DNA of 64,000 nucleotides from an uncultured Mycoplasmatota bacterium. Its GTDB lineage: Bacteria > Bacillota_I > Bacilli_A > RF39 > UBA660. This document shows positions 11,583 through 51,810 of this stretch, one piece after another. How positions within the stretch are numbered: position 1 is the first letter of the stretch; each line of letters starts with the position of its first letter. Below the pieces are notes generated by a model. It was given only the letters and a program-made list of their open reading frames with translations, was not told where the DNA came from and did no database searches. The stretch lies in NCBI GenBank assembly GCA_947302655.1, contig CAMYVW010000002.1:233537-297536 (forward strand). Direction: 5' to 3'. Position numbers and translations under genes: made by a program.

Positions 11583-11593
11583 AGGTGAATATC

Positions 11594-36046: not shown

Positions 36047-38677
36047 ATGACTAAATATGTATACTTATTTAGTGAAGGTAATGCTGATATGAGAAACCTT
36101 CTTGGTGGTAAAGGTGCTAACCTTGCTGAAATGACTAATATTGGTCTTCCAGTACCTCAAGGTTTTACTATCACTACTGAAGCTTGTACTAAGTATTATG
36201 AAGATGGAAGAGAAATTAACTCTGAAATCCAAGAACAAATTAATGAATATATCGTTAAGATGGAAGAAATTACTGGAAAGAAATTTGGAGATGTAGAAAA
36301 TCCACTTTTAGTTTCAGTAAGATCTGGTGCTAGAGCATCAATGCCTGGTATGATGGATACTATTTTAAATTTAGGTTTAAATGAAGAAGTAGTAGAATCA
36401 ATTGCTAAACAATCTAATAATCCTAGATGGGCATGGGATTGTTATAGAAGATTTATTCAAATGTATTCTGACGTAGTTATGGAAGTTGGTAAGAAATACT
36501 TTGAAGAATTAATTGATAAAATGAAAGAAGCTAAGGGAGTTAAACAAGATGTTGAACTTTCTGCTGAAGATTTAAAAGAATTAGCTAATGAGTTTAAAGC
36601 TGAATATAAAGCTAAAATCGGTAGTGAGTTCCCAACTGATCCAAAAGAACAATTAATGGGAGCTATTAAAGCTGTATTTAGATCTTGGGATAACCCTAGA
36701 GCTAACGTATATAGAAGAGATAATGATATTCCATATTCATGGGGAACTGCTGTAAATGTTCAATCTATGGCATTCGGTAATATGGGAGATGACTGTGGTA
36801 CAGGTGTTGCCTTTACTCGTGACCCTGCAACAGGTGAAAAAGGTTTATTTGGTGAATTCTTAACTAATGCACAAGGTGAAGACGTTGTTGCTGGTGTTAG
36901 AACTCCAATGCATATAACTGAAATGGAAGAAAAATTCCCAGAAGCATTTAAACAATTTAAAGAAGTTTGTGAAACTCTAGAAAAACATTATAGAGATATG
37001 CAAGATATGGAATTTACTGTTGAACATGGTAAACTTTACATGCTTCAAACAAGAAATGGTAAAAGAACTGCTAAAGCAGCACTAAAAATTGCTTGTGATT
37101 TAGTAGATGAAGGAATGAGATCAGAAGAAGAAGCTGTAGCTATGATTGATCCTCGTAACCTTGATACATTACTACATCCACAATTTGATGCTACTGCACT
37201 TAAAAATGCATCAGTACTTGGTAAAGGTTTAGGAGCATCTCCTGGAGCTGCTTGTGGACAAATCGTATTTAGTGCTGAAGATGCTGTTAAATGGAAAGAA
37301 AATGGTAAAAAAGTCGTTTTAGTTAGACTTGAAACTTCACCAGAAGATATTACTGGTATGAAAGCTTCTCAAGGTATTTTGACTGTTCGTGGTGGTATGA
37401 CAAGTCATGCTGCAGTAGTTGCTCGTGGTATGGGTACTTGCTGTGTATCTGGTTGTGGAGATATCGCAATGGATGAAGCTAATAAACAATTTACTTTAGC
37501 TGGTAAAACATTCCATGAAGGTGATGAAATTTCTATTGATGGTACTACAGGTGTTATTTATGAAGGATTAGTTCCTACAGTTGATGCTACTATTTCAGGT
37601 GAATTTGGCAGAGTTATGGAATGGGCTGATAAATTCAGAACATTAAAGGTTAGAACTAATGCTGATACTCCAAGAGATGCTAAAAAAGCTCATGAACTTG
37701 GAGCACAAGGTATTGGTTTATGTAGAACAGAACATATGTTCTTCGAAGAAGATAGAATTGCTGCATTTAGAGAAATGATTTGTGCAGATACAGTTGAAGA
37801 AAGAGAAGCTGCACTTGATAAGATTTTACCTTATCAACAATCAGACTTTGAAAATATGTATGAAGCCCTTGAAGGTGATTCAATGGTAGTTAGATACTTA
37901 GACCCACCTCTACATGAATTCGTTCCAACTGAAGAAGCTGATATTAAAAAACTTGCTGATGCTCAAGGTAAATCAGTTGAAAGAATTAAAGAAATTATTG
38001 ATGCACTTCATGAATTTAACCCAATGATGGGTCATAGAGGATGTCGTTTAGCTGTTACTTATCCAGAAATAGCTAAGATGCAAACTAAAGCTGTTATTAG
38101 AGCTGCTATTAATGTTAATAAGAAACATCCAGAATGGAATATAACTCCAGAAATTATGATTCCTCTTGTTGGAGAAGTTAAAGAGTTAAAATATGTTAAA
38201 GATGTAGTTGTTGCTACAGCTGATGAAGAAATTAAAAATGCTGGAGTTGAAATGAAATACCAAGTTGGTACTATGATTGAAATTCCAAGAGCTGCTTTAA
38301 CTGCTGATGAAATTGCTAAAGAAGCTGAATTCTTCTCATTTGGTACTAACGACTTAACTCAAATGACATTTGGATTCTCAAGAGATGATGCTGGTAAATT
38401 CTTACCTGCTTACTATGAAAAGAAAATTTATGAAGAAGATCCATTTAAGACACTTGATCAAACTGGTGTTGGTCAATTAATTAAAATGGCTGCTGAAAAA
38501 GGAAGAAGCACTAGACCTGAACTTCATTTAGGAGTTTGTGGTGAAACTGGTGGAGATCCTAAATCAATTGAATTCTATAATGCTGTTGGACTAGATTATG
38601 TATCTTGCTCACCATTTAGAGTTCCAGTTGCTAGACTTGCTGCTGCACAAGCTGCAATTAAAGCAAAGAAGAACTAA
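36047..38677 (+). CDS. ppdK: Pyruvate, phosphate dikinase.
   Basis: 876 aa with the PEP-utilising enzyme mobile-domain motif GGMTSHAAVVARGMG and the nucleotide-binding N-terminus. Full-length PPDK. Confidence 0.9.
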   Translation: MTKYVYLFSEGNADMRNLLGGKGANLAEMTNIGLPVPQGFTITTEACTKYYEDGREINSEIQEQINEYIVKMEEITGKKFGDVENPLLVSVRSGARASMPGMMDTILNLGLNEEVVESIAKQSNNPRWAWDCYRRFIQMYSDVVMEVGKKYFEELIDKMKEAKGVKQDVELSAEDLKELANEFKAEYKAKIGSEFPTDPKEQLMGAIKAVFRSWDNPRANVYRRDNDIPYSWGTAVNVQSMAFGNMGDDCGTGVAFTRDPATGEKGLFGEFLTNAQGEDVVAGVRTPMHITEMEEKFPEAFKQFKEVCETLEKHYRDMQDMEFTVEHGKLYMLQTRNGKRTAKAALKIACDLVDEGMRSEEEAVAMIDPRNLDTLLHPQFDATALKNASVLGKGLGASPGAACGQIVFSAEDAVKWKENGKKVVLVRLETSPEDITGMKASQGILTVRGGMTSHAAVVARGMGTCCVSGCGDIAMDEANKQFTLAGKTFHEGDEISIDGTTGVIYEGLVPTVDATISGEFGRVMEWADKFRTLKVRTNADTPRDAKKAHELGAQGIGLCRTEHMFFEEDRIAAFREMICADTVEEREAALDKILPYQQSDFENMYEALEGDSMVVRYLDPPLHEFVPTEEADIKKLADAQGKSVERIKEIIDALHEFNPMMGHRGCRLAVTYPEIAKMQTKAVIRAAINVNKKHPEWNITPEIMIPLVGEVKELKYVKDVVVATADEEIKNAGVEMKYQVGTMIEIPRAALTADEIAKEAEFFSFGTNDLTQMTFGFSRDDAGKFLPAYYEKKIYEEDPFKTLDQTGVGQLIKMAAEKGRSTRPELHLGVCGETGGDPKSIEFYNAVGLDYVSCSPFRVPVARLAAAQAAIKAKKN

Positions 38678-38690
38678 TATAAATAATTAA

Positions 38691-38717
38691 AGACTAGGTA
38701 AAACTAGTCTTTTTTTA
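38691..38717 (+). terminator. ppdK terminator, followed directly by the extended -10 TGaTATAAT at 38718-38726.
   Basis: AGACTAGgtaaaaCTAGTCT plus T7. This hairpin-plus-promoter module recurs at each cassette junction. Confidence 0.7.
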
Positions 38718-38743
38718 TGATATAATTTATGTAGGTGATAATT

Positions 38744-39277
38744 ATGACAATTAATTATTCTGATCAAGAAGTTATAAAAAATCAGAAATCTATATTTTTA
38801 GCTGGCCCAACTCCAAGGGGTGAAAATGTTATATCTTGGAGAACTAAAGCTTGCAATATAATAGAACAACTAGGATTTGATGGAATAGTATATGTTCCAG
38901 AATATTCAACATGGAAACCCAAAGCAGATTATGTAGATCAAGCACAGTGGGAAAGAGACGCATTATCCAATGCTTCAGTAATAGCTTTCTGGATCCCAAG
39001 AACATTACCAGATATGCCAGCATTTACAACAAATGTAGAATTCGGTTATTGGTTACATACTGGTAAAGTATTATATGGAAGACCTGATGATGCTAAAAAG
39101 ATTAAATACCTTGATTGGTTATATAAAACTGATACAAATAAAACCCCATATTCAAGCTTAGAAGAATTATTATATGGTTCTATAAAATTAGCAAACCAAC
39201 TTGGTGTTAATGATGAAACAGAAATATTAACATTAGAAAAAAGATTGATTATGAGCAAAAGTAATCATAATAAATGA
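38744..39277 (+). CDS. Nucleoside 2-deoxyribosyltransferase-like protein (cassette 1).
   Basis: SIFLAGPTPRGE N-terminus plus ASVIAFWIPR...FTTNVEFGYWLHTGKVLYG resembles the Nuc_deoxyri_tr2 fold. RBS AGGTGATA and an ATG lie 17 nt after the -10. Confidence 0.5.
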   Translation: MTINYSDQEVIKNQKSIFLAGPTPRGENVISWRTKACNIIEQLGFDGIVYVPEYSTWKPKADYVDQAQWERDALSNASVIAFWIPRTLPDMPAFTTNVEFGYWLHTGKVLYGRPDDAKKIKYLDWLYKTDTNKTPYSSLEELLYGSIKLANQLGVNDETEILTLEKRLIMSKSNHNK

Positions 39278-39340
39278 CATGTCAAAAAAACAAGGCCTAG
39301 CCATGTAGAAATAGTATGTATTTTAGAAAGGAAATAAGAA

Positions 39341-39964
39341 ATGAAAACTATTTATTTAATAAGACATTCTGCGCCTTTTATTGAAATAGAAAATTATGAA
39401 GATTATAAAAATGTTCCATGGAATGATTATAATCGAAATATGATTCTTTCTAGTGAAGGTGAAGAAAAAGCAAAAAGGCTTTGCGAATTAGATGAATTAA
39501 AAGATTTAGATTCTATATATTCGGCTGATTCATTTAGAGCAATCGGTACTGCAAAATTTGTTGCAGAGATGAATAATTTAAAGATAAAAATAGATACCAG
39601 AATAAATGAAAGAAATCTTGGAGTAAATACTATTAGTGAATTACCTGATAATCAAACAATAAAATCATTTAGTAATAAAGATTATAAATTTGGAAATGCT
39701 GAATCACTTAATGAAATGGATAATAGATTCAATTCGTTTATAAAAGATGTATTAAGAAGTGATAATAATAAAATAGCATTATTTATTCATGGAATAATAA
39801 TGATGTCTTTTCTTCAAAATAATACCGATTTTTCTTTTGATGGTAAAAATATGAAATTATTATTTAATGATAAAGAAGTATATAATGATAAAATGATAAA
39901 TCCTATGGTTTTTAAAATAGAATATGAAGATACTAGAATAATAAACGTTGAATTTATTGGATAG
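39341..39964 (+). CDS. Histidine phosphatase (PGAM-like) family protein.
   Basis: MKTIYLIRHSAPF is the catalytic RHS/RHG N-terminus. A conserved His lies near the C-terminus (FIHG). Confidence 0.7.
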   Translation: MKTIYLIRHSAPFIEIENYEDYKNVPWNDYNRNMILSSEGEEKAKRLCELDELKDLDSIYSADSFRAIGTAKFVAEMNNLKIKIDTRINERNLGVNTISELPDNQTIKSFSNKDYKFGNAESLNEMDNRFNSFIKDVLRSDNNKIALFIHGIIMMSFLQNNTDFSFDGKNMKLLFNDKEVYNDKMINPMVFKIEYEDTRIINVEFIG

Positions 39965-40103
39965 GAATGACTTAGCAATAATACGCTAAAAACTAGGAAA
40001 ATTTTATTAAGATGAATTATTTCCAGAAACTAAAAAAACTTATGATTTATTAGTTATTATTAAAGATGTTAAAATAATATTAACTCTATGGAAGGAATTA
40101 GAT

Positions 40104-40742
40104 ATGAAAACAATTGTATATATTTCAAGACATTCTTTAACTTTAAAAACGAAAGTATTAAATGAAAATCAGAGCAGTGTTATTCAAAACATAAAAACTC
40201 CATTATCGGTTAAGGGTGAAGAAAACGCTAAAAAATTGAGTGAATATATCGAGTTAAGCTCAGTGGATGCTGTTTATTCTAGCAATTATACAAGAGCAAT
40301 TTCTACTGCAAAATATATTGCTAATAAAAATAACTTAAATGTAATAGTTGACTATAGATTTGGAGAAAGATTACATGGTGTAAAGAATGATTATAACGAA
40401 CTTCCATATGACTTTGAGATGATGCAATTAAAGGACGAAAACTATAAATATGGAGAAGGTGAGTCAAGGAAAGAAGTTACAGAGAGAATGAGAACTGCAT
40501 TATTTGATGCAGTAAATACAAATGCTGGTAAAACTATTTATATCACCTCTCATTCAACTGCTATGATGGATTTATTTATTTCATTTGGTTATGCAAAAAT
40601 TGAAGATGGTAGGTTTAGTATAATTGTTAATGATATTGAATTATTAAATAGTGATTTTGAATGGAATACTAATTCTCCCGAACTTTTTAAACTTGACTTT
40701 GAAGATGATAGATTGGTAAATATTAATTATGTTAAATGGTAA
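40104..40742 (+). CDS. Histidine phosphatase (PGAM-like) family protein.
   Basis: IVYISRHSLT catalytic motif with ITSHS near the C-terminus. It is a paralog of the gene at 39341, but divergent. Confidence 0.7.
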   Translation: MKTIVYISRHSLTLKTKVLNENQSSVIQNIKTPLSVKGEENAKKLSEYIELSSVDAVYSSNYTRAISTAKYIANKNNLNVIVDYRFGERLHGVKNDYNELPYDFEMMQLKDENYKYGEGESRKEVTERMRTALFDAVNTNAGKTIYITSHSTAMMDLFISFGYAKIEDGRFSIIVNDIELLNSDFEWNTNSPELFKLDFEDDRLVNINYVKW

Positions 40743-40875
40743 TTTCTATATGTTACTGTATAGTTGGTATTTACCAACTTCTTTTATGTATTAGAATATT
40801 GTGTAAAGTTAACGTATTAATATCAATGTGAAAGTAAATTTTGATATAATGTTTATAGTAAGGAAGTGTGGTCAA

Positions 40876-42513
40876 ATGGAAAATAAAGTCTTTTTAGAAT
40901 TATCTGAAGATGAGAATCTTAAAAAAATGAATATTGATCCACTTTTAGTTGATTCTTTTAAAAGGGTTATGATAAAGATTCAAGAATACTTTGACGCTAA
41001 TGGGTATACTGATGAAATTGATTTTAATTCTATTGTAAAAGAATATATAATGCCTCGTGATGTTGTTGATAAAGATACAGTAAGAAGTAATGAAGAATTC
41101 ATCACTTCACTTAACAGTGCAAAAAAAGCCTACAACGATTTAGAGAAACTTTTTGGTGCAAAATTACCACCATTTAGTGATGAGGATTACTTGTCGAATT
41201 ATATTCAAAAAAACTATAATGTAGGTTTGTGTATTACTGTTTCCTCAAATAGCAGTAGTTTTTATGATAATTATGGTCAGTACGAACCTTCTGTTAATCA
41301 GATAATTATAAATAAAGCTTCAAATGTTTTTAATTCAGACGAGCTAGATAGAGTAATATGTCATGAATTTATTCATTGTTTAACAATGTGTGGCAGTCCA
41401 TCTATTAGTTCTGTTAGTGATGAGATGCCAAGTGTTATGTTTGAGCCAATAACTGAAATGATTTCATCCGAAATAATTGGAGAAGGTATTCCACATTCAT
41501 ATAGAAGTTTTTGTAAGATAATTAAATATATGAATAAAATCGCTGGAGTTAATGACTATAGTTCTTTTTTAAATAGGAAACTTGATTCTAGGTATAATTC
41601 ATTTACATCAGTAATTGACTTAATGGATAATGCGTTTAATAAAGGAAGTTTTAATGAGGACCGTAAATATGGTGTGATTAATAAAGAAGATATGGTAAGT
41701 GTACTTACATCCATTACAAGTGAGCTTGTAATTAGAAATTATAGTGGTGTTGATGATTTGATTGATAACCTAATTCATATTTATAGTTTAAAGGGAGATC
41801 TTTCAATTGATACAATAAAAAATATCCAAGAAATAATCGTAAAGAGTTATTTATCTAAAAATAGAATTTCTGATGAGATAACGGCACAAAAAATAATGCA
41901 ATTATTAGAAGTAAAAAATACTCGAAGATTGATAGATGGTAGAGAGTTTTCTACAATTGATATCGATGGTACAAATTACTACGTTGATAGAAATGGTGGT
42001 ATTTATTACCATGATGAAAATGTTATTAATAAACTTTCTTTCGCTGCATTAGCACATGATTTAAATAATGGGACATTGCTTATAGGTAGTGGTTCTACAT
42101 TCAAAGGCTTTGATTTATCAAGCATGGATTTTAGTAAACTTGGAGATAGTTTAGAAGAAAAACAAAAGCTATTGGAAAGTGAAATAAGTTTATTAATAGG
42201 AGGTAAGAAATTGAATAGACCATATATAAAACAAAGCGTTATATCTATAATTGAATCTAGAGATAAAGCTATTACACCTAGCAAGCAGGAGTATAAAAAG
42301 AAGCTTAAAAGACCATACATTAATCCTGCTACTAAATCTTTACTTGAAGAAAAGATTAAATCATTCGAATTTGAAAAAGAGAGGGAAAAATTATTATCTC
42401 AAAAAAACAATATTCAACAGATTATGACAGAACAGCAGTTACTTGCTAATCAACAAGCTGTAATGGCTTCTCTTGAAGAACAAGATGAACAAGATATGAG
42501 TATGGGAATGTAA
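40876..42513 (+). CDS. Hypothetical 545-aa protein with an HExxH motif (putative metallohydrolase-like).
   Basis: VICHEFIHCL contains HExxH. It has a Q-rich C-terminus. Own promoter TTGATATAAT at 40844. No ppdK-type repeat lies upstream. Confidence 0.4.
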   Translation: MENKVFLELSEDENLKKMNIDPLLVDSFKRVMIKIQEYFDANGYTDEIDFNSIVKEYIMPRDVVDKDTVRSNEEFITSLNSAKKAYNDLEKLFGAKLPPFSDEDYLSNYIQKNYNVGLCITVSSNSSSFYDNYGQYEPSVNQIIINKASNVFNSDELDRVICHEFIHCLTMCGSPSISSVSDEMPSVMFEPITEMISSEIIGEGIPHSYRSFCKIIKYMNKIAGVNDYSSFLNRKLDSRYNSFTSVIDLMDNAFNKGSFNEDRKYGVINKEDMVSVLTSITSELVIRNYSGVDDLIDNLIHIYSLKGDLSIDTIKNIQEIIVKSYLSKNRISDEITAQKIMQLLEVKNTRRLIDGREFSTIDIDGTNYYVDRNGGIYYHDENVINKLSFAALAHDLNNGTLLIGSGSTFKGFDLSSMDFSKLGDSLEEKQKLLESEISLLIGGKKLNRPYIKQSVISIIESRDKAITPSKQEYKKKLKRPYINPATKSLLEEKIKSFEFEKEREKLLSQKNNIQQIMTEQQLLANQQAVMASLEEQDEQDMSMGM

Positions 42514-42522
42514 GGAGAAAAT

Positions 42523-42846
42523 ATGGAAAAAGAATTTTTATTAAAAAAAGAAGATATAAAACCATTAATTAAACTTGGGTTTAGTTGTATAGCATCTGAT
42601 AGAATTACGCTAGATGGTAAAAAAGTAGGTTATATGTATAGAGAAGGTTCAACAAGCCAATCTGATACTGGATGGAGATTTTTTGCTGGTGATGAAAATG
42701 AAATCTATACTGATAATCCTGATAATTTTGAAATATACGATTTAAATACAATATGTAATTATGATAAGGATATTATTCCCTATCTAACTAAACCAGTTGG
42801 ATCTAAATTAGAGAGAAACGGAACTGAATTTACTGAAGTTGACTAA
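42523..42846 (+). CDS. Small hypothetical protein (107 aa), possibly a DUF2185-like immunity-type protein.
   Basis: Translationally coupled to the upstream HExxH protein (9-nt gap, RBS AAGGAG). The GWRFFAGDE motif is reminiscent of DUF2185. The assignment is uncertain. Confidence 0.35.
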   Translation: MEKEFLLKKEDIKPLIKLGFSCIASDRITLDGKKVGYMYREGSTSQSDTGWRFFAGDENEIYTDNPDNFEIYDLNTICNYDKDIIPYLTKPVGSKLERNGTEFTEVD

Positions 42847-42859
42847 TAATAATTAAAGA

Positions 42860-43045
42860 TTGTTTTGTATAAGTTTTATTCTTAGAAAGAAAATAACTAT
42901 GATTAAAAGCATTAATAAGGTTGATACAAATATGGAACCATATAATAGTATTGAAGATTTATTATTATCATCAATTTTTAAGGCGAATGAAGTTGGTATT
43001 AATTATGAAAATGAAATGCTTCCTTTACAAAAAAGAAAATTATAG
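42860..43045 (+). pseudogene. 3' remnant of a nucleoside 2-deoxyribosyltransferase-like cassette gene.
   Basis: KVDTNMEPYNSIEDLLLSSIFKANEVGINYENEMLPLQKRKL aligns with the C-terminus of the 38744 gene (KTDTNKTPYSSLEELLYGSIKLANQLGVNDETEILTLEKRLI). It lacks the N-terminal two-thirds. Confidence 0.55.
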
Positions 43046-43056
43046 AAATGATAGTA

Positions 43057-43107
43057 TTTTAATTTCATATAACTTTTACTCCCTTCCATGATGGAAGTAC
43101 AAGCTGC
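43057..43107 (+). repeat. 51-bp perfect direct repeat (left copy) ending in the ppdK-end-like core CAAGCTGC.
   Basis: ttttaatttcatataacttttactcccttccatgatggaagtacaagctgc is identical to 43638-43688. Confidence 0.8.
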
Positions 43108-43184
43108 TATCAAGCAAGGAAGTAAAAATTAATTTCTAAGAGATTAAGTGAAAACTTAATCTTTTTCTATGATATAATTATTAT

Positions 43185-43637
43185 ATGTTGGTGATAAATG
43201 TGGAAACAAAATATGAATTTTTTATAGCAGGTAAAACTAGAAATAAGAATAATATTTTAAAAATATGTGATATTTTTGATAAATATAATATTTCTTATTA
43301 TTGTTTTTTAAAAAATGATGATACTATGAACAGTTATGGTGAAGAAGGCCAAACTGAAGATGAAAAAATGAAAGTGTTTGAAAATCTTGGCTTAAAAAGT
43401 GATATTGTTTTAAATATATTTAAACAAGATTTAGATAACGAAAAAGCATGTAAAAATTTATTATTGGTTCTACCGGCTGGTAAATCTGGTCATATTGAAG
43501 CTGGGATAGCATATGGTATGGGTAAAAAATGCTATGCGATTGGTGAATTTGATGCCACTGATTCATTATATAATATTTTTGAAAACATCTTTGAAAGTGA
43601 GCAACAATTAGAAGAGTTTTTAAAACAATATAATTAG
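43185..43637 (+). CDS. Nucleoside 2-deoxyribosyltransferase-like protein.
   Basis: FIAGKTR N-terminus and LVLPAGKSGHIEAGIAYGMGKKCYAIGE resemble the C-terminal catalytic-Glu region of the PF05014-type fold. The true start may be the GTG at 43200, after RBS GGTGATA. Confidence 0.5.
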   Translation: MLVINVETKYEFFIAGKTRNKNNILKICDIFDKYNISYYCFLKNDDTMNSYGEEGQTEDEKMKVFENLGLKSDIVLNIFKQDLDNEKACKNLLLVLPAGKSGHIEAGIAYGMGKKCYAIGEFDATDSLYNIFENIFESEQQLEEFLKQYN

Positions 43638-44281: not shown

Positions 44282-44310
44282 TATACAAGTCATCTTAGCC
44301 TTAATCGGCT

Positions 44311-44353: not shown

Positions 44354-44480
44354 CAAGTAATTAAACTAATAAAGACTAGAGAAATCTAGTCTTTTTTGTT
44401 CAGAAAATAGTAATATTGTGATTACTAAAAGTAAGAAAAAAAGTATATTCTTGTGATATAATGAATATGAGGTGTAAACT

Positions 44481-45224
44481 ATGAATGAGTATATTAATTT
44501 AGATGAAAAGAATATTGATGAAGAACATATTTGTTGTGCAATAGGAGATCCTAAACATCAAGATGGTGTTGATAAAAAGAAAGAATGGATTAAAAGCAAA
44601 TTAAAAGATGGTCATGTATTTAGAAAGTTAAATGCAAGAGGTAAAATCTTTATTGAGTATGAACCAATAGAAACTGCTTGGGTTCCTATCAATGGTAAAA
44701 ACTATATGCATATTTATTGTTTATGGGTAGCAGGTAGTTTTAAAGGAAAAGGTATTGGTAAAGAATTATTAGAATATGCTATTGAAGATGCAAAAAATAA
44801 AAAAATGAGTGGTGTATGTACATTAGTATCACAAAAGAAGAAACCATTTATTGGAGATAAGAAATTCTTTGAACATTATGGATTTAAAGTAGTTGATACA
44901 ATTAATGACTATGAATTAATGGCATTACAATTTGATGATAAAGAAGCGCCTAAGTTTAGTGATAGTGCTAGAAAGATGGAGATTGATAGTCAAGATTTCA
45001 CTATATATTATTCTAATGAATGTCCATATGTTGAATATGAAGTAAAAGAGTTATCTGATTATGCTAAAGATAAAGGCATTAAGTTAAACTTTATAAAAAT
45101 AGATTCATTAGAGAAAGCTAAAAATGCTCCATGTGTTTTTAATAATTGGGCAAACTTTTATAAAGGAAAGTTTGTTTCAAATACAATATTAAATGCAAAT
45201 GCATTTGAAAAATTGATTAAATAA
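44481..45224 (+). CDS. GNAT N-acetyltransferase with a YoaP-like C-terminal domain.
   Basis: CLWVAGSFKGKGIGKELLEYA is GNAT motif A. The C-terminal ~100 aa resemble the YoaP-like domain. Confidence 0.6.
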   Translation: MNEYINLDEKNIDEEHICCAIGDPKHQDGVDKKKEWIKSKLKDGHVFRKLNARGKIFIEYEPIETAWVPINGKNYMHIYCLWVAGSFKGKGIGKELLEYAIEDAKNKKMSGVCTLVSQKKKPFIGDKKFFEHYGFKVVDTINDYELMALQFDDKEAPKFSDSARKMEIDSQDFTIYYSNECPYVEYEVKELSDYAKDKGIKLNFIKIDSLEKAKNAPCVFNNWANFYKGKFVSNTILNANAFEKLIK

Positions 45225-45320
45225 AATGATCGTAATATTTTAAGATTGCGATATCCTTGTTATAATTAACTAGATAAGCAATTTAGTTAATATTAGTTTA
45301 GCTTCCCAGCTTTGACATTA

Positions 45321-45353
45321 TTGCAAGCTGCAATTAATGCAAAAAAGAATTAA
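45321..45353 (+). repeat. ppdK-3'-end-like core (degenerate).
   Basis: ttgcaagctgcaattaatgcaaaaaagaattaa. Confidence 0.7.
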
Positions 45354-45428
45354 TATATAATTATTAGAAGACTAGAGAAATCTAGTCTTTTTATGATATA
45401 ATAAAAATATATTCGGGGAGGTTTACTT

Positions 45429-46373
45429 ATGAAAGATTTTAGAAAAATAGATGATAAACTATATTATGCAAAATATTGTGATAAGAAAGTTGGTAATCCA
45501 AAAGAAATTTGGAGTTCAATTAAAAGTAATAGGGAATTATTAGAATGGGCAATCAAACCAACTAAAGATAAATTTGGAGAAAGAGATTTAGTAAATGGTT
45601 TAGCAATATGTGAGGATATGCTTGTTGATTTTAATAATGTTGATAATGAAGTGTATCAAAAACTTGTAGACTTGATTTATTCTAATAGACAAATTGCTAG
45701 AATTGTTTTAGATGGTTATAGTAATGGTGGTTATTCATATTTACTGATGACTTTATGGAATCCTAATTTAAAACTAACAGAATATCAAAAAGCATTTGCA
45801 GTTGATGAAGCAATGAATAAAATTGGTACTACTAGATATGAAAATGCTAAGAATGAATATTCTAAAAAACTAGATGAAAAAGGCATTACAGATGAACAAA
45901 CTATGTATACTGAATTTGGTGGGTCCATTAATCCTGTAGGTGCTAAAACTGGTAATATGTACATGACTAGTTTATTTGGTTCATTAAGTGATACTCAAGC
46001 TCATGGTTCAGGAGATTTTGATATAAGATATTGGATACTTAGAAATCCAAATTGGTCATTCGAAGAAAAACAAAAACTAATTATTGATTTTTGGTTTAAT
46101 GACGAAGATTATGACGAAACATTAGAACAATGGGAATGGGGTATTGTTAATGATCATGCAAATTATAAAGGAAACCCAATGCCTTTGTTTGATAGAGATG
46201 AATTGTATGAGTATTCTTATGATGGATTATTAAAGTTCTATGGTGATAAAGAAACTACAGATAGAATATGGGAAGAAATCCAATTTTGTAAACAAATGCA
46301 TCAATTAAGACCTCAACAATGGGAATTAGAATTTGTTAAACCAAGAGTTTTAGAAAAAATAATACAAAATTAA
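45429..46373 (+). CDS. Hypothetical protein (314 aa).
   Basis: ORF with RBS GGGGAGG after the repeat, terminator and promoter module. No family recognised. Confidence 0.45.
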   Translation: MKDFRKIDDKLYYAKYCDKKVGNPKEIWSSIKSNRELLEWAIKPTKDKFGERDLVNGLAICEDMLVDFNNVDNEVYQKLVDLIYSNRQIARIVLDGYSNGGYSYLLMTLWNPNLKLTEYQKAFAVDEAMNKIGTTRYENAKNEYSKKLDEKGITDEQTMYTEFGGSINPVGAKTGNMYMTSLFGSLSDTQAHGSGDFDIRYWILRNPNWSFEEKQKLIIDFWFNDEDYDETLEQWEWGIVNDHANYKGNPMPLFDRDELYEYSYDGLLKFYGDKETTDRIWEEIQFCKQMHQLRPQQWELEFVKPRVLEKIIQN

Positions 46374-46476
46374 AAAATTACACAATTAAAGAAACAAAAT
46401 TATTGTTATAAAATAACATAAATAGTTATCTTAGTCCGCGAATTGGTTCTTTATTGTTCTAATCTTTACTGTCGGG

Positions 46477-46500
46477 CAAGCTGCTATTCGTTCTAAGCAA
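46477..46500 (+). repeat. ppdK-3'-end-like core (most degenerate copy).
   Basis: gggcaagctgctattcgttctaagcaa. Confidence 0.5.
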
Positions 46501-46637
46501 TCTAAATGAAATATGCATAAAGGCTGAGTAAAATCAGTCTTTTTCTATGTTCGGAAAATAGAAAATTTTACGATTACTCAAATTATTAAAAAAAATCAAA
46601 AAACGTGTTATAATTATATATATAATAGGAGTTGCAT

Positions 46638-47924
46638 ATGAAAAAGAAAGTTATAATTATAAGTTCAATAACATTAGTATTTGTTTTGGCAGTGGCATTA
46701 ATAGTTTTATTGGTATTTAATAAAGATAAAGATTTAAATACAGAAAAAGAAAAATTTGATAATGAAATTGTTTCGATATTAACTATTGATGTTAATCCTA
46801 GTATTGAAATAAACTTAAATAAAAACAATATTGTTGTTAGTGTTGTTGCTTTAAATGATGATGCTAAAGTTGTTACTAATAATTTAAATTATGAGAAAGA
46901 AAAATTAGAAAATGTTTTATCAATGTTGGTTGATTCTTTAAAACAAAATAATTATTTATCTGATGAAAATAATTTAATACTAATTAATGTTGATTCAAAA
47001 GATGAAAAATTATTGGAATTGGTTAAAAATAAAACAAATGAATCGTTAGAAAAAAATAAAGTTAATGGGGAAATAGTTATACAACAAGTTGAAGAAACTA
47101 GTGAATTGAAAGAATTAGCAGAAAAAAATAATATTACAATTTCAAAAGCATATTATATTCAAGAACAAATAAAAAATGAAGAAGGTTTAAAGGTAGAAGA
47201 CTTTAAGGATACATCTATAACTGAAATAAAAGAAAAAATAAATAATTACAAACAAGAACAGGAACAAAAGAAACAAGAAGAACTAAAAGAAAAGACAACG
47301 ACAAAACAAACAAACACTAATACAAGTAAAAATACAACACCAAATACTAACACAACAACTCAAAAGGTGACTAAGACTTATACATGTACACCACCAAACG
47401 ATTTAAAAGATACTGAATGGTGTAACTGGAATAATAAAAGACCTCAAAGTTGTGAATTCTATTATGATGATATTAGTACTGATAAAGTCAGAGGGTACGC
47501 ACTTTCTCGTTATAATTTAGATGATTCAGCCAGTACTTATATTACAACCCAAGAATATAAAGGTGCTTCTTACTGTAGAGCACATATTGTAAAAATTAAT
47601 ACTTCAAGTGAAAAAATTATAAGTTATTGGGATTCACATACTGGAGAATTCTTAAAAGAAAAAAGAGAAACCGCTCCAACCTATATTAGTACCGAGACAG
47701 CCCAGACAGTTGCTAAAAATTATATTAAGAATAATAAAAATAACGCTTTTGATGAAGCAGAAATAAAGTATTCTGAAGTTAATAGTGGAACAGATCGTGA
47801 TGGTGGACCAGATGAATATTATAGACATCAAGTATTATTTATAATGAATGACGGTACTCATTATACAGTGGATGTAGATGCTGTAACAAAAGAAGTTAAA
47901 TACTACCGTACATGGACAAATTAA
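46638..47924 (+). CDS. Hypothetical membrane-anchored or secreted protein with a T/N/Q-rich linker.
   Basis: N-terminal TM IIISSITLVFVLAVALIVLLVF followed by a KTTTKQTNTNTSKNTTPNTNTTTQ linker and a C-terminal globular domain. Confidence 0.45.
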   Translation: MKKKVIIISSITLVFVLAVALIVLLVFNKDKDLNTEKEKFDNEIVSILTIDVNPSIEINLNKNNIVVSVVALNDDAKVVTNNLNYEKEKLENVLSMLVDSLKQNNYLSDENNLILINVDSKDEKLLELVKNKTNESLEKNKVNGEIVIQQVEETSELKELAEKNNITISKAYYIQEQIKNEEGLKVEDFKDTSITEIKEKINNYKQEQEQKKQEELKEKTTTKQTNTNTSKNTTPNTNTTTQKVTKTYTCTPPNDLKDTEWCNWNNKRPQSCEFYYDDISTDKVRGYALSRYNLDDSASTYITTQEYKGASYCRAHIVKINTSSEKIISYWDSHTGEFLKEKRETAPTYISTETAQTVAKNYIKNNKNNAFDEAEIKYSEVNSGTDRDGGPDEYYRHQVLFIMNDGTHYTVDVDAVTKEVKYYRTWTN

Positions 47925-48050
47925 AAAAAGAAGAGTCTAGTGATACAAACTAGACTTTTTGAATGTTCGCAATATTTTTGTTTTTACGAACACAGATACA
48001 TGATATAATTAGTTTGGATAAGCAATTTAGTAAAAATATAGTTTTGCTAC

Positions 48051-48097
48051 CCGAACTTGCTTATAGTACAAGCTGCAATCAAGGCAAAGAAGAATAA
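48051..48097 (+). repeat. ppdK-3'-end-like core (close copy).
   Basis: ccgaacttgcttatagtacaagctgcaatcaaggcaaagaagaataa compared with ppdK agacttgctgctgcacaagctgcaattaaagcaaagaagaactaa. Confidence 0.8.
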
Positions 48098-48157
48098 GTA
48101 ATAATTAAGACTAGGTAAACCTAGTCTTTTTTATGTTATAATTGAGTTGGTGATAAT

Positions 48158-48514
48158 ATGAAATATAATTTTGACATAAATAATAGAGCTTTTAATGCTA
48201 TTAAAAATAAAACTAAAAGAGTAGAAATTAGAACTACTAAATTGGGTAAAAATCATTTTGACTATGGCATTCTAAAAAGTGGAGATAAAATTATATTTAA
48301 ATCATATGATGGTGAAATAATTAATTGTGTAGTTGGTGATGTTAATCATTATGATTCAATTGAGGAATTATTAACACTTGAGGGAACAAGATATACATTA
48401 TCATCTACAAATGATTTTAATGAAGGTATTAAATCTATCAATAGTATAAATGGTTATGAAGAAGCAATAAAAGTTAATGGCGTGTACGCTATACATATTA
48501 CACCTATAGAATAA
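48158..48514 (+). CDS. ASCH (PUA-like) domain protein.
   Basis: KTKRVEIRTTKL...SGDKIIFKS...GVYAIHI matches the ASCH beta-barrel pattern. The size (118 aa) is typical. Confidence 0.45.
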   Translation: MKYNFDINNRAFNAIKNKTKRVEIRTTKLGKNHFDYGILKSGDKIIFKSYDGEIINCVVGDVNHYDSIEELLTLEGTRYTLSSTNDFNEGIKSINSINGYEEAIKVNGVYAIHITPIE

Positions 48515-48545
48515 TTAATTATAAGTCATTTTAGCCTTAATCACC

Positions 48546-48593
48546 CCTAACTTGCCTATAGTACAATCCGCAATTAAAGCAAAACAAACTAAA
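48546..48593 (+). repeat. ppdK-3'-end-like core (degenerate).
   Basis: cctaacttgcctatagtacaatccgcaattaaagcaaaacaaactaa. Confidence 0.7.
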
Positions 48594-48675
48594 TAATTAC
48601 AATTAAATCAAGAAAACTAGTTAACTTCATACAACCTAGTTTTTTTATGATATAATTTACGTGTAGGTGATAAGT

Positions 48676-49152
48676 ATGGATTATCAATTAGCAAAAGTTA
48701 AATATCAAGCTAAAGATAAGTTATATAGACTTCTTGAATACTCATTATATGAAGGCTCTTTTTATATGGATAAAGATGTAAATGATGAATGTTTATTTGA
48801 ATATAAGTGGTTTGATAATTATTTTACTGATGATGATAGAGATGCCTATTTTATTAAGACTAATAATAAATATATAGGTTATGTTATGGTTAACGAAAAT
48901 TTAAAATTTAATAAGTGTGGAAAGTGTATTGCAGAGTTTTTTATTATGCCTAAGTATAGAAGAAATCATGTAGGTAAGAATGTTGCTTTTGAAATATTTG
49001 ATATGTATCAAGGAGACTGGGAAGTTCAACCTATGGAAAATAATATAAATGCATATTCTTTTTGGAGTAACATTATAAAAGAATATACCAATGGTAATTA
49101 CACCATAAAGAATGATGGTATTGAAGATGTTTTTATTTTTAAAAGCAGATAG
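48676..49152 (+). CDS. GNAT-family acetyltransferase.
   Basis: FFIMPKYRRNHVGKNVAFEIF is a motif A-like segment. Confidence 0.5.
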   Translation: MDYQLAKVKYQAKDKLYRLLEYSLYEGSFYMDKDVNDECLFEYKWFDNYFTDDDRDAYFIKTNNKYIGYVMVNENLKFNKCGKCIAEFFIMPKYRRNHVGKNVAFEIFDMYQGDWEVQPMENNINAYSFWSNIIKEYTNGNYTIKNDGIEDVFIFKSR

Positions 49153-49194
49153 TTAATTCTTTTTTATTAGTTTTATAATTTAAGGAGTCATTAT

Positions 49195-50085
49195 ATGGAA
49201 TTATTAAAAGCTAAAACAATTTTATCTAAGGTAAACTATGGTAATGATTGGTACGGTGTAGATTATAATATAAATCTTTATAGAGGATGTTCTCATGGCT
49301 GTATTTATTGTGATAGTAGAAGTAATTGCTATCACATAGATAATTTTGATGTTCCAAAAGGTAAAGAAAATGCCTTATTAATACTTGAAAAAGAATTATC
49401 TAAAAGAAATGATCATGGTGTAGTAGGAATAGGTTCTATGTCTGATACTTATAATCCTTTAGAAATAAAGCATGAACAAACAAGAGGAACTTTAAAGTTA
49501 TTATCTAAATATAATTATGGTGTATCTATCGATACTAAAAGTGATTTAATATTAAGAGACTTAGATTTACTTAAAGAAATAAATTCTAAAAATAACGTTA
49601 TTATTAAATTTACTATAACAACCCCAAATGATGAATTATCTAAAATAATTGAACCTCATGTTTGTGTATCTTCAAAAAGATTTGAAGCTATTAAAAAGTT
49701 ATCTGATAATGGTATATTTGTTGGAATAATGATGAATCCAGTTTTACCATTTATTACTGATAGTGAAGAAGATATAATAAAACTAGTTAAGTTTGCTCAT
49801 GATAGTGGTGCTAAATTTATCCATACATTTATGGGAATGACATTAAGAGAAAATCAAAGAGATTATTACTTTGAAGAACTTGATAAATATTTTAAGGGAT
49901 TAAAAGAAAAGTATATTAAGTATTATGGACAAAGTTATAATTGTGCTGTTCCTAATTATAAATCATTATATAAAGCGTTTACTAATGAGTGTGATAAATA
50001 TAAAATACTTTATAATATGAAAGATATTATAAAAACCTATAAAAAAGAGATAAAGGATGATAATGAACAAATATCATTATTTTGA
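49195..50085 (+). CDS. Radical SAM protein, SplB/COG1533 (DNA photolyase-like) family.
   Basis: NLYRGCSHGCIYCDSR carries the CxxxCxxC cluster in the context characteristic of COG1533. Confidence 0.6.
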   Translation: MELLKAKTILSKVNYGNDWYGVDYNINLYRGCSHGCIYCDSRSNCYHIDNFDVPKGKENALLILEKELSKRNDHGVVGIGSMSDTYNPLEIKHEQTRGTLKLLSKYNYGVSIDTKSDLILRDLDLLKEINSKNNVIIKFTITTPNDELSKIIEPHVCVSSKRFEAIKKLSDNGIFVGIMMNPVLPFITDSEEDIIKLVKFAHDSGAKFIHTFMGMTLRENQRDYYFEELDKYFKGLKEKYIKYYGQSYNCAVPNYKSLYKAFTNECDKYKILYNMKDIIKTYKKEIKDDNEQISLF

Positions 50086-50155
50086 TAAAATAGTTATTAA
50101 TTAATTGCAATACATAAATTAAGTATGTTAAAATATGCGGAAATGGGTGGGTTTT

Positions 50156-51178
50156 ATGAAAAAAACAAAAAGATTAAAAAAAATAGAAAATAAAAACAAT
50201 AAAAATACTTATGATGCCATAGTTGATATTGTTTCTTATACAGAAAATATTCAGTATTATTCTTATAAAAGAGAAGATTATAAAGAACTTGTTCTAAATG
50301 CACTAGTTAATAATTCTTCTTCAATTAAGTATGTTTCACCATTATCAAATGATTATGCATTTTTTTGTGAGGAAGCAGTAAAACAAGACTATCAAAATTT
50401 CCTGCTTATAAATGATAGTGTTACTAATTATAAAGAGCTTGGAATTAAAGCAATTTTAGTTAATCCTTTTGTTGTATGTGATTTACCAAAATTTTCAAAA
50501 TATTATTATTTCTTTTGGAAGCTTGCTGTATTTAATTGTTTTAGTGTTTTAATGTCAATTAAAGAAGATAATAAAGAGTTATTTTCTTTAATAGCTATAG
50601 CACTTGATAAAGAACCTAAAGCTATTTTATATGTTGACCATGAATTATCTATATACAATAATTTATGCAAGTTTGCTTATAGTAAAGATGTTGAATCTGT
50701 TGATTATATGGATATAAATTATGTAGATAAAAAACTTGCTTTAGAAATAATTAAAAGAGATCCTAAAAAAATTGATTGTTTAAATATAGATAGTCCTTAT
50801 TATAACGAAGCTTGGAGGCTTGCAGTTAGTTTAAATAGTGAATTAATAAATACTGTTTGTTTTCATAATATGGAACAAAGACTTGATTTTTTCTTAGAAT
50901 TAATTAATTCTATAAAATTAGAGAATCCTGGTATTATGAAAAGTTATAACGTTCTTAAAGCTTTATATTTTAAAAATAAACGTGATAAAGAAAAAGTTAT
51001 TAATTCATGTGATTCACCGGATGAAGAATTTTTCAAATTGCTAGGTGATTTAGATAATGACGGTAAGTTATTATATAAAAAATTATTAGAGGCACGTGAA
51101 AACTTTTATAAATCATCTAAATCAAATAGCTATATTTATTCAGAACATGAATGTCCTATTAGAGTTAAAACTAGGTAA
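50156..51178 (+). CDS. Hypothetical protein.
   Basis: ORF. The ATG at 50156 is preferred, after RBS GGGTGGG. No family recognised. Confidence 0.4.
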   Translation: MKKTKRLKKIENKNNKNTYDAIVDIVSYTENIQYYSYKREDYKELVLNALVNNSSSIKYVSPLSNDYAFFCEEAVKQDYQNFLLINDSVTNYKELGIKAILVNPFVVCDLPKFSKYYYFFWKLAVFNCFSVLMSIKEDNKELFSLIAIALDKEPKAILYVDHELSIYNNLCKFAYSKDVESVDYMDINYVDKKLALEIIKRDPKKIDCLNIDSPYYNEAWRLAVSLNSELINTVCFHNMEQRLDFFLELINSIKLENPGIMKSYNVLKALYFKNKRDKEKVINSCDSPDEEFFKLLGDLDNDGKLLYKKLLEARENFYKSSKSNSYIYSEHECPIRVKTR

Positions 51179-51228
51179 TGTTATATAACCTAGTTTTTTT
51201 ATGTTATAATTTACGTGTGGGTGATAGT

Positions 51229-51810
51229 ATGAATCTTATATTTTTAAGACATGGTGAAGCAACTGATAATGTTAAAGAACTAATCTCTGATAAAGAAATT
51301 TACTGGTCTATATTAACTGATAAAGGAATAAAAGATGTAAAAGAATCAATTGAGTTATTACCAAGTAATATAGATATAGTTTATGTTTCACCACTTCCAA
51401 GAACAATTCAAACAGCTCATTTTGTTTATGAAAAATATCCTCATTTAAACTTTTTAATAGATGATAGAATTAGAGAAATACAATATGGTAAATATTCTCA
51501 TTTTAAGAATAATGAAGAATTAGATGAAACAAGAAAAAAACAAATTGCTGGCGATTATTTAGTTAGATTTGGTGACTACGGTGAAAATAAGCTAGATATT
51601 GAAAGAAGATTATCAAATTTTTTAATTGATATATCTAAAAGTAAATATGAAAATGTATTAATTGTATCTCACGGATCAGTGATATCTTATATGAAGAGAT
51701 TATTAGATTTAAAATCTTCACATATTAAAAAAGGTGAAATAGAAATATTTAATGATGTAGATTTTAATTATTTATTAAAGTATCAAGATATTCTTGATAG
51801 ATTTAAATAG
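51229..51810 (+). CDS. Histidine phosphatase (PGAM-like) family protein.
   Basis: MNLIFLRHGEATDN is a canonical RHG catalytic N-terminus with a VSHG C-terminal His. It is preceded by the terminator-plus-TGtTATAAT module. Confidence 0.75.
   Translation: MNLIFLRHGEATDNVKELISDKEIYWSILTDKGIKDVKESIELLPSNIDIVYVSPLPRTIQTAHFVYEKYPHLNFLIDDRIREIQYGKYSHFKNNEELDETRKKQIAGDYLVRFGDYGENKLDIERRLSNFLIDISKSKYENVLIVSHGSVISYMKRLLDLKSSHIKKGEIEIFNDVDFNYLLKYQDILDRFK

Follow-up and report, generated by a model that had tools for sequence, protein, structure and literature searches.

An array of small gene units follows ppdK, the gene for pyruvate, phosphate dikinase, in a 64-kb stretch of contig CAMYVW010000002.1 (hereafter the window, at its full length) from an uncultured low-GC Bacillota lineage (~25% GC; array DNA 26% GC). 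Seven units lie between eight copies of a short core sequence from the ppdK 3′ end, with core-to-core lengths of 4452, 581, 647, 996, 1153, 1592 and 495 nt, and six of the seven are single-gene cassettes of 0.5-1.6 kb. The preferred explanation, to which a probability of about 0.6 is assigned, is tandem accretion at an attachment site (attB) inside ppdK by elements of the large serine recombinase (LSR) type, with integrase-less mini-cassettes being moved in trans. The original prediction, made from the sequence alone, had proposed repeated insertion at one site overlapping the ppdK stop codon, with the site regenerated by each event. This proposal is supported by comparison with relatives: hypervariability of the ppdK tail sets in precisely at the core; relatives at 94-98% nucleotide identity hold different cassettes, with homology breaking at the core; cassette lengths are conserved between different neighbours; and both LSR elements and an integrative and conjugative element (ICE)-like element occupy the same site.

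The attachment site at the 3′ end of ppdK

The gene and its terminal site are located as follows.

36047..38677, + strand: ppdK (876 aa; open reading frame, ORF), with the attachment site within its last ~30 nt
38648..38677, + strand: attL-type site, consisting of the core CAAGCTGCAAT and the tail TAAAGCAAAGAAGAACTAA, the latter encoding (I)KAKKN and the stop codon

The last 30 nt of ppdK read CAAGCTGCAATTAAAGCAAAGAAGAACTAA, in which the 11-nt core CAAGCTGCAAT covers the codons Q-A-A-I. The site at 38648..38677 is the present-day insertion point. Considering 120 ppdK homologues with at least 89% identity, all of which contain the PPDK_N, PEP-utilizers and PEP-utilizers_C domains (120/120), the 37 C-terminal residues ending in RLAAAQA exist in only 9 versions, and the 7-12 residues that follow exist in 44 versions, tails being replaced within 4-12 residues (e.g., AIKAKKN, AIKSGTKKN, AIKSSQK, AIALKNNK, AIKERRQ and HLRQKAAQKQGK). 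Identical tails are found in differing backgrounds, and the variation, which starts at the core, matches the expectation that integrating elements supply replacement tails. In addition, the window sequence GCT GCA CAA GCT GCA ATT AA, compared by eye, fits the published degenerate ppdK attB motif at 18 of 20 positions, the two mismatches being position 3 (T, not S) and position 19 (A, not G).

Repeat copies and junction anatomy

The 20-mer CAAGCTGCAATTAAAGCAAA from the ppdK 3′ end has six matches at three or fewer mismatches between 38648 and 48583, all on the + strand, where 0.02 would be expected by chance; besides the gene end itself, it recurs at 43681, 44328, 45324, 48069 and 48564. A profile hidden Markov model (HMM) built from the junctions was used to scan the full window and recovered eight copies, namely the real ppdK end and seven pseudo-ends, with zero further copies in the remainder of the 64 kb. 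The core starts agree with the seven junction intervals downstream of ppdK that had originally been named as carrying copies of the terminus. The profile also picked up the decayed copies at 43100 and 46477, the latter already described as decayed from the sequence. Core starts, placed by profile and sequence, are given with each copy.

38590-38721, + strand: real ppdK end, core start 38648
43050-43173, + strand: pseudo-end, core start 43100 (decayed)
43626-43747, + strand: pseudo-end, core start 43681
44275-44400, + strand: pseudo-end, core start 44328
45269-45393, + strand: pseudo-end, core start 45324
46418-46549, + strand: pseudo-end, core start 46477 (decayed)
48014-48138, + strand: pseudo-end, core start 48069
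48507-48632, + strand: pseudo-end, core start 48564

The claim that every junction carries such a copy proved too broad. Cores are missing from all five inter-gene gaps of the first 4.45-kb unit (38.7-43.1 kb) and from all junctions past 48.6 kb; the junction at 51150-51228 retains the module of terminator, promoter and ribosome-binding site (RBS) alone, and a repeat (D8) makes 48613 and 51167 alike at 88% identity. Homology had also been proposed to span the last ~45 bp of ppdK. It holds for the core plus a tail of ~20-25 nt, whereas in the 40 nt upstream of the pseudo-cores a shuffle test found similarity to ppdK no better than that of shuffled sequence. A candidate gapless homology of ~70 nt across the upstream arms of the junctions was dropped as non-significant in the same test.

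A hairpin with a T-run follows each core copy, with + strand terminator calls at 38689, 43716, 44371, 46519 and 48107. The terminator scan of the array region returned 11 terminator-like sites against 2.2 expected, and five of those on the + strand stand directly after cores. Behind each hairpin, TGnTATAAT, a GGTGATA-type RBS and an unrelated ORF can be read by eye. The succession of hairpin, promoter, RBS and unrelated gene that had been described from the sequence is upheld by the terminator excess for its first part and is visible in the sequence for the rest. A generic sigma-70 promoter scan was uninformative in this AT-rich DNA (136 found vs 134 expected), so that the promoter claim stands solely on the visible TGnTATAAT. 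The window junctions measure 115-265 nt and are free of pseudogene debris, and tblastn detects no LSR remnants in them.

Two junctions (45225-45323 and 47925-48068) share an extra segment upstream of the core, in which a TATAAT-like box is followed by GATAAGCAATTTAGT. A transcript from this box would cross the arm upstream of the core, the core and the tail up to the next terminator, giving an RNA of ~110 nt; it has no Rfam match, and an Rfam scan of 38-55 kb returned zero RNA families.

Units of the array

The units are listed from the ppdK-proximal end, with lengths measured from core to core. P′ denotes the left end of a unit and P arm the stretch that leads up to the next core; arm classes are described further below.

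38648..43099, + strand: unit 1, 4452 nt, six ORFs, zero internal cores (Pfam)
38678..38746, + strand: left-end (P′) expression module of cassette 1, from sequence and terminator scan, with hairpin 38689-38712, TGaTATAAT 38718-38726, RBS AGGTGAT 38733-38739 and ATG 38744
43100..43680, + strand: cassette 2, 581 nt, 150-aa ORF 43185-43637, with pseudo-core at 43100 and its own terminator, promoter and RBS; upstream arm of class 3
43681..44327, + strand: cassette 3, 647 nt, NUDIX hydrolase 43751-44281 (Pfam), then a class-1 P arm starting GTCATCTTAGCC
44328..45323, + strand: cassette 4, 996 nt, GNAT acetyltransferase with YoaP domain 44481-45224 (Pfam)
45324..46476, + strand: cassette 5, 1153 nt, 314-aa ORF 45429-46373, no Pfam family
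46477..48068, + strand: cassette 6, 1592 nt, 430-aa RsgI_M-domain protein 46632-47924, with decayed core CAAGCTGCTAT and divergent tail
48069..48563, + strand: cassette 7, 495 nt, 118-aa ASCH-like ORF 48158-48514, then a class-1 P arm
48564..48632, + strand: last recognisable pseudo-end, with core CAATCCGCAAT, tail and hairpin
48633..54700, mostly + strand: distal cassette-like genes without ppdK cores (GNAT, radical SAM, DUF4116, His_Phos_1, a deaminase on the - strand, TP_methylase, HTH)

By Pfam, unit 1 holds a Nuc_deoxyribosyltransferase-like gene, two His_Phos_1 genes, a 561-aa unknown protein, Imm33 and a 61-aa ORF. The cargo of the window units consists only of metabolic, immunity or unknown proteins, and a recombinase domain is found in none of the 20 proteins at 38.7-54.7 kb. 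Likewise, tblastn of the window with queries for the LSR and for the helix-turn-helix (HTH) gene HTH-155, both from relatives, gave zero matches. For the remaining window ORFs, which were inspected by eye and not by Pfam, no recombinase is evident. These searches agree with the early remark that no integrase lies in the window.

Several of these genes occur elsewhere, although exact-protein look-ups with the ppdK, NUDIX and 118-aa products of the window, and with protein P0001, returned zero matches. Cassette 2 has a counterpart of 582 nt and 95% identity beside other neighbours in contig L103; the cassette 4 gene is 94% identical in L131 and 86% identical in L195, in differing contexts; and cassette 7 recurs as the same 495-nt unit in L202, its gene also being present in L096, L098, L105 and L206. 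The His_Phos_1 gene at 51229-51810, coreless in the window, is a core-flanked cassette in L098, L109 and L164. On the accretion model, the pseudo-end at 48564..48632 would be the oldest attachment-site copy. The conserved flank begins near 54783; L098 and the window have flank families 22 and 23 in common. The remaining window looks like housekeeping DNA (rpsB, tsf, frr, trmD, rplS, rnhB, topA and others).

Within unit 1, the 561-aa protein (40828-42846) has no Pfam family and a weak SprT-like match (E = 0.027), and the Imm33 gene lies directly downstream; the two may form a toxin-immunity pair of the ppdK-proximal unit.

Turnover of cassettes among related contigs

Scanning metagenome contigs for the core yielded 120 of them, to which the junction profile was then applied. 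It identified 225 junctions in 111 contigs, spaced 400-7600 nt apart (median ~1 kb), and orientation was never mixed within a contig; the genes called inside the arrays are likewise co-oriented (169 vs 4 opposed). Arrays often hold 4-8 units. The 102 complete core-to-core cassettes comprise 68 with one gene and 23 with two, in 91 distinct gene compositions, and their cargo includes nucleotide-modifying enzymes, acetyltransferases, immunity proteins, Fic, toxin-antitoxin and Abi-type genes. The contigs are labelled as uncultured Clostridia, Bacilli or Firmicutes metagenome-assembled genomes (MAGs) of ~25% GC, with at least one pig-gut and at least one human-gut sample among their sources.

Clustering of the proteins places window cassettes in other arrays beside other neighbours, and recurrent cassettes keep discrete lengths. 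A two-gene cassette of HTH and Bro-N measures 1264-1267 nt in four contexts with differing neighbours, and other recurrent cassettes, also with differing neighbours, form length pairs of 581/582, 495/495 and 624/624 nt. An M20-peptidase cassette (family 12) is less uniform (1524/1524/1454 nt).

The breaks between related contigs fall at the core. L198 matches the window at 98% nucleotide identity over 41420-43113 and diverges right after CAAGCTGC, L132 matches at 95% identity up to 46487, inside a core, and then diverges, and the similarity of L202 begins at 48064, 5 bases before a core, and runs through the next one. In an all-against-all megablast comparison, 14 of 51 internal left endpoints lay at -12 to 0 nt from a core, where about one would be expected (a 13-nt target per ~1 kb). 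In L083, the array behind a 94% identical ppdK is a different one and includes three pseudo-ends. L001, the closest genome-collection relative among the matches listed (88% amino acid identity of ppdK), has the same ppdK end, terminator and promoter and two decayed pseudo-ends. At the same time, the family 6 and family 21 cassettes stand in the same order in the window and in L098, with ~80% nucleotide identity, which indicates that the array mixes old, vertically inherited units with variable ones.

These data bear on the possibility that nothing here is mobile and that a terminator-promoter or 3′ untranslated region (3′UTR) module has spread by local duplication, its likeness to ppdK being incidental. 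The terminator-promoter-RBS part does recur coreless at 51167 and 53921, but the core is not found in the other 54 kb of the window, cassette content varies by strain, ppdK tails are swapped, and the autonomous elements described below are bounded by the same core, all of which make this explanation very improbable. The original prediction had itself named a fixed gene content among relatives and a generic 3′UTR motif as outcomes that would speak against it; gene content is not fixed, and the ppdK motif is not such an element.

Two further observations concern the junctions themselves. A 454-kb metagenome scaffold (L082) stops 19 nt past the ppdK stop codon, in keeping with a ppdK terminus that varies by strain and breaks assemblies. 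Genes of the insertion sequence (IS) family IS110 (DEDD_Tnp_IS110 plus Transposase_20) stand in reverse orientation right behind ppdK-type junctions in three independent contigs, at the following oriented coordinates where available.

L092, 1957-3183, - strand: IS110-family transposase gene
L132, 2481-3632, - strand: IS110-family transposase gene
L184: IS110-family transposase gene

They recall the IS1111/IS110 elements that target integron attC sites.

Right-hand arms and the position of the crossover

The upstream arms of 170 pseudo-ends fall into 64 clusters. The largest, class 1, has 44 members with the consensus AGTCATTTTAGTCTTAATCGTCCCTAACTTGCCTATAGTA and stands behind 29 unrelated gene families in 38 contigs. 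In classes 1 and 3, the ORF stop lies ~50 nt before the core; in the window, class 1 is present at 44328 and 48564 (+ strand) and class 3 at 43100 and 43681 (+ strand). The motif GTCATTTTAGTCT precedes 77 of 167 pseudo-ends but none of the real ends, and these account for 77 of its 89 occurrences in the data set. Class-4 arms are found behind both LSR genes and cargo genes. The presence of one arm class after many unrelated genes indicates that the arm is a conserved site rather than random debris.

Polymorphism inside the core helps to place the exchange. Positions 6 and 9 both segregate with the right-hand side, and the base 5′ of the core segregates with the left-hand side: position 6 is identical in 103 of 120 right-homologous pairs versus 88 of 122 left-homologous pairs, and position 9 in 118 of 120 versus 102 of 122. 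This co-segregation places the exchange within or just left of CAAGC, although a comparison of L213 with L214 gives crossover positions that partly conflict with this bound.

Large serine recombinases and autonomous elements in relatives

Related contigs contain a family of LSRs of 530-580 aa with the domains PF00239 (Resolvase, E = 7e-28) and PF07508 (Recombinase, E = 2e-29), in agreement with the precomputed domains of 120 homologues. Matches in the PDB comprise conjugative-transposon, SPbeta, TP901-1, A118 and phiC31 integrases, the best being a 'putative conjugative transposon recombinase'. In five contigs (L092, L102, L126, L159 and L196), the LSR gene stops 71-94 nt upstream of a core. 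As an independent test, two LSR homologues (P0124 and P0140) were picked by protein similarity alone and their neighbourhoods (L210-L217) then inspected; in 8 of 8 places, ppdK was co-oriented with the LSR gene and lay 4-6 kb upstream of it.

Whole elements can be delimited. The P0140 element, of 6.2 kb, is present in 23 contigs with at least three upstream contexts, carries the core at both ends and encodes HTH-158, a 385-aa protein, an N6/N4 methyltransferase, an ASCH protein and the LSR. Its attL and attR share CAAGCYGC; the element-side P and P′ arms are constant and the chromosome-side arms differ. An extra two-gene unit sits between ppdK and this element in L214. Elements with an LSR were found in L100, where the LSR gene is frameshifted, and in L210-L217, and they open with an HTH gene of ~155 codons whose product is homologous (35-75% identity) to that of the first gene of an ICE-like element. 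The latter lies directly behind ppdK in three contigs with differing upstream contexts.

L081, 12810-22637: ICE-like element with HTH-155, ParB_N, a ~1000-aa SpaA/TED surface protein, sortase, SSB and MobC
L084 and L085, 12842-22634: ICE-like element with the same genes

The ppdK tails before it are of the 'SG' type (KSGTKKN, RSGKKN) and differ from the core onward. In viral contigs, the only matches to core plus tail were four that lay within a phage gene and are put down to chance, and the LSR query gave zero matches; a free attP was not recovered.

The array might instead be built site-specifically by some other enzyme, such as a tyrosine recombinase of the ICE, a host Xer-type recombinase or an unknown protein, with the LSR elements merely sharing the hotspot. 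Neither a far end nor an integrase was recovered for the ICE-like element, a Phage_integrase gene stands two genes upstream of ppdK in L213, L214 and L217, and the slightly conflicting crossover positions are what a longer overlap region would give; conjugative transposons (CTns) of Bacteroidota also target this ppdK motif, by means of integrases of their own (PMC11005914). Yet the LSR is the sole recombinase family found beside cores, with five full-length genes at the distance given above and all eight independent contexts, although not every cassette protein was screened; the LSR elements are themselves bounded by cores and share a P-arm class with cargo cassettes; and the upstream Phage_integrase is confined to one genomic background. 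A different enzyme is therefore considered improbable.

Proposed mechanism and the evidence against it

If accretion by LSR-type elements is correct, the 3′ end of ppdK would be an attachment site for integrative elements that use an LSR. Each unit consists, in order, of the core, a replacement ppdK tail with stop codon, a terminator, an extended -10 promoter with RBS, the cargo, and a P arm of ~40-90 nt that runs up to the next core. The LSR would recombine the ppdK end with a unit in circular form, made up of P arm, core and P′, and integration would swap the ppdK tail for that of the element, leaving ppdK intact and the site regenerated. The displaced former tail would move downstream as a pseudo-end, and repetition would build a co-oriented array with the newest unit proximal to ppdK. 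Since P′ closely mimics the chromosomal tail (as seen in the sequence logo), the product beside ppdK would again be a usable target. Units without a recombinase would be non-autonomous; an LSR acting in trans could excise them, insert them or exchange them at the cores on either side, its likely source being the 5-6 kb LSR elements, and probably also the ICE-like element, at the same site in relatives. A circularised cassette would form a full transcription unit of promoter, ORF, P arm, core, tail and terminator. The anatomy (a common 11-nt core, element-specific arms to its left and, to its right, a conserved arm that doubles as the ppdK tail), the cassette turnover with breaks at the core, the discrete cassette lengths and the strict linkage of LSR and ppdK are observed. 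We infer the action of the LSR on mini-cassettes in trans, the formation of circles and the exact crossover dinucleotide, and the mobilisation of cassettes in trans is the weakest link.

Several observations weigh against this mechanism. The LSR, any remnant of it and the HTH-155 gene are all without trace in the 64-kb window, so that action in trans rests on relatives and not on this genome, and a terminal-overlap check of the contigs revealed no circular cassettes or excision junctions. Mapping of the crossover gives a bound, at or left of position 6, and no single dinucleotide. The P arms show great diversity, with 64 clusters, and the LSR lineages are 52-82% identical, so that no pairing of enzyme and site emerges. 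Canonical LSRs pair attP with attB and need a directionality factor for the reverse reaction, a requirement with which any reuse of hybrid sites has to be reconciled. The module of core, tail, terminator and promoter, ~90 nt long and ~75-90% alike between cassettes, could support RecA-mediated exchange, and homologous recombination inside it could contribute to the shuffling; the breakpoints separate the two routes only in part. Finally, truncated HTH-155 copies lie behind cores in L194, L196, L213 and L216, and LSR fragments are present in L098 and L196, which marks some units as decay products. With full elements, fragments and neat cassettes seen together, autonomous elements, decay products and cassettes appear to coexist in these arrays.

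The last two points also favour an account in which decay alone is at work: the arrays would be a graveyard of LSR elements and ICEs cut down to cargo and displaced attachment sites on which recombinases no longer act, with shuffling by homologous recombination after DNA uptake. Such an account is further favoured by the frameshifted LSR of L100 and by the shared order of families 6 and 21 in the window and L098, which look old and vertically inherited, and its three-step route is the textbook origin of cis-mobilizable elements (CIMEs) (PMC5704250). Random deletion, however, is unlikely to leave an intact P arm of ~40 nt at ~50 nt after the stops of 29 unrelated genes. It also sits badly with cassette lengths that are constant within 3 nt across contexts, with window junctions free of debris and LSR remnants, and with core positions 6 and 9, which track the right-hand side and are not randomly split. 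Decay as the whole explanation is accordingly regarded as unlikely.

A bolder extension of the LSR mechanism is offered tentatively and at somewhat less than even odds: the arrays may represent a serine-recombinase counterpart of the integron, that is, a dedicated gene-capture system that is widespread in low-GC Bacillota of gut and rumen and whose cassettes are a maintained class and not debris. One-gene transcription units would then end in a conserved P-arm site of ~40 nt, ~50 nt past the stop, and LSRs in trans would insert, excise and shuffle them at the ppdK terminus.

Comparison with known systems

Serine-recombinase accretion at the 3′ ends of genes is already known, as is a ppdK attB in another phylum. 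The staphylococcal cassette chromosome (SCC) enters the 3′ end of rlmH (orfX) in staphylococci by means of the Ccr LSRs (CcrAB/CcrC), and composite islands include units without ccr (10.64898/2026.03.31.715619). In its attachment sites, half-sites flank a central dinucleotide, and several of the similar half-sites come from the element (10.64898/2026.03.31.715619; 10.1101/336396). The ppdK arrays resemble SCC in using an LSR, in targeting the 3′ end of a conserved single-copy gene and in forming tandem arrays split by attachment-site copies with recombinase-less units. They differ in the target gene (ppdK versus rlmH), in the host (an uncultured low-GC Bacillota lineage versus staphylococci), in size (one-gene units of 0.5-1.6 kb versus tens of kb), in the module of tail, terminator, promoter and RBS on each unit and in arrays that commonly reach 4-8 units. 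The LSR belongs to the same broad enzyme class as Ccr, and its best PDB match is the putative conjugative transposon recombinase mentioned above.

Tandem islands at ssrA in Dehalococcoides are bounded by direct repeats of 20 bp from the 3′ end of ssrA, and a conserved motif specific to the element stands just upstream of each repeat (PMC3146451). They encode DsiB, a CcrB-like serine recombinase of ~540 aa, and many of them lack the integration module and are read as CIME-like (PMC3146451). Tandem units behind a single-copy essential gene, repeats of its terminus, an upstream motif and a serine recombinase are common to both systems. Dehalococcoides islands, however, are multi-gene and have a six-gene integration module at attL, whereas the LSR of the ppdK elements is at the attR side and the units are single-gene with their own expression signals.

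CIMEs retain attL and attR without any integrase or transfer genes, stand in tandem with autonomous elements that share their specificity and are open to mobilisation in cis; site-specific accretion of this kind is known from ICESt1 and ICESt3 at the 3′ end of fda and from IME/ICE tandems (PMC5704250). In the same way, the seven units between eight cores described here are devoid of integration and transfer genes, and autonomous elements occupy the same site in relatives. Classical CIMEs, in contrast, are decayed ICEs with tyrosine recombinases and few per locus, whereas the present arrays are long, with conserved P-arm classes and a serine recombinase.

The PvCTn family of CTns in Bacteroidota uses as attB the ppdK motif that encodes AAQAAI and regenerates the stop codon within 2-3 residues, and its attL and attR are imperfect direct repeats (PMC11005914). 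Target motif and regenerated stop are thus the same as here. PvCTns differ in phylum and in being large CTns for which cassette arrays have not been reported; the ICE-like element of L081, L084 and L085 is the nearest counterpart among the present contigs.

With integrons, the arrays share a fixed insertion point, co-oriented one-gene cassettes, diverse cargo, a short site after the ORF, discrete boundaries and a newest unit in proximal position. Integrons differ in their IntI tyrosine recombinase, folded single-stranded attC sites, usually promoterless cassettes driven by Pc and a platform integrase, none of which are present here. An assignment of the array to the integrons proper, or to CALINs (clusters of attC sites lacking an integrase), is hardly credible, even with co-oriented, mostly single-gene cassettes that are very diverse and often of unknown function. 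Neither the window nor the loci examined contain an IntI-type tyrosine recombinase, each cassette has its own promoter and terminator, and the associated recombinase is a serine enzyme. In line with the initial view that the repeats are not attC-like, they reproduce the ppdK core and tail in direct orientation and, in a comparison that did not extend to formal modelling of attC boxes, are not imperfect palindromes with R″/L″-L′/R′ boxes; their sole hairpin is the terminator with its T-run.

In tycheposons and additive flexible genomic islands, too, partial repeats of a target gene's 3′ end stand between cargo units, many of which have no recombinase; their targets are tRNA or tmRNA genes, their enzymes mostly tyrosine recombinases, and their units larger than the ppdK cassettes.

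The architecture had initially been put forward as undescribed. In that general form the statement does not stand, since tandem accretion of LSR-bearing and integrase-less units and the ppdK attB are both on record, but for the miniaturised one-gene form no description was found. What appears undescribed is the combination of long arrays of one-gene cassettes carrying their own signals, a site at fixed distance, high cargo diversity and a serine recombinase. The literature search found no LSR-driven single-gene cassette array, which is weak evidence, as most subscription journals were outside its coverage.

Breadth, significance and a possible second hotspot

Copies of the ppdK terminus are also found beyond the low-GC contigs. 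A Hungatella-like MAG of 48% GC (L078) has two exact or near-exact downstream copies of its own ppdK terminus (10721-12500), which bracket a pair that looks by eye like RelB/YoeB and a second small cassette; no recombinase was seen in 10 kb. A Clostridiales MAG of 42% GC (L047) has one extra copy (10721 and 13037). These copies indicate that accretion at the ppdK terminus is not confined to one clade.

To our knowledge, integrons are the only well-understood system for stockpiling and shuffling single-gene cassettes, with a distribution that is essentially limited to Gram-negative lineages. If the present interpretation is true, cassette banking would have evolved more than once, with a different enzyme class, in abundant uncultured Firmicutes of gut and rumen, and a large and very diverse pool of small accessory genes (91 compositions in 102 cassettes) would be exposed. 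It would also offer natural pairs of LSR and attachment site in which the site is regenerated by each insertion, a property sought for iterative genome engineering. As a contig-breaking, strain-variable hotspot, the ppdK terminus is relevant to the annotation of MAGs and to strain tracking.

A second junction repeat, unrelated to the ppdK core, reads AAAAC(T/C)AATATAAACTGGTTG(A/G)TA(T/A)T(G/A)ATTTAGT(C/T)AAAG. Its copies in the window lie upstream of rbgA.

23226-23262: second repeat
23837-23910: second repeat
24851-24925: second repeat

They stand behind two small accessory genes (for a 148-aa protein and an HD-domain protein) and inside a 20-codon ORF (24820-24882), and the repeat is also present in L082 and L148. 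Gene content in the region upstream of rbgA (19-25.5 kb of the window) differs among the window, L081 and L082, and this region may be a second cassette hotspot with its own attachment-like site. Together with the arrays of the Hungatella-like MAG, the repeat hints at a general principle. A GNAT acetyltransferase gene of family 9 (22197-22724) lies upstream of rbgA in the window and forms a core-flanked cassette of the ppdK array in L098 and L109, and its occurrence in both places suggests gene traffic between the two hotspots.

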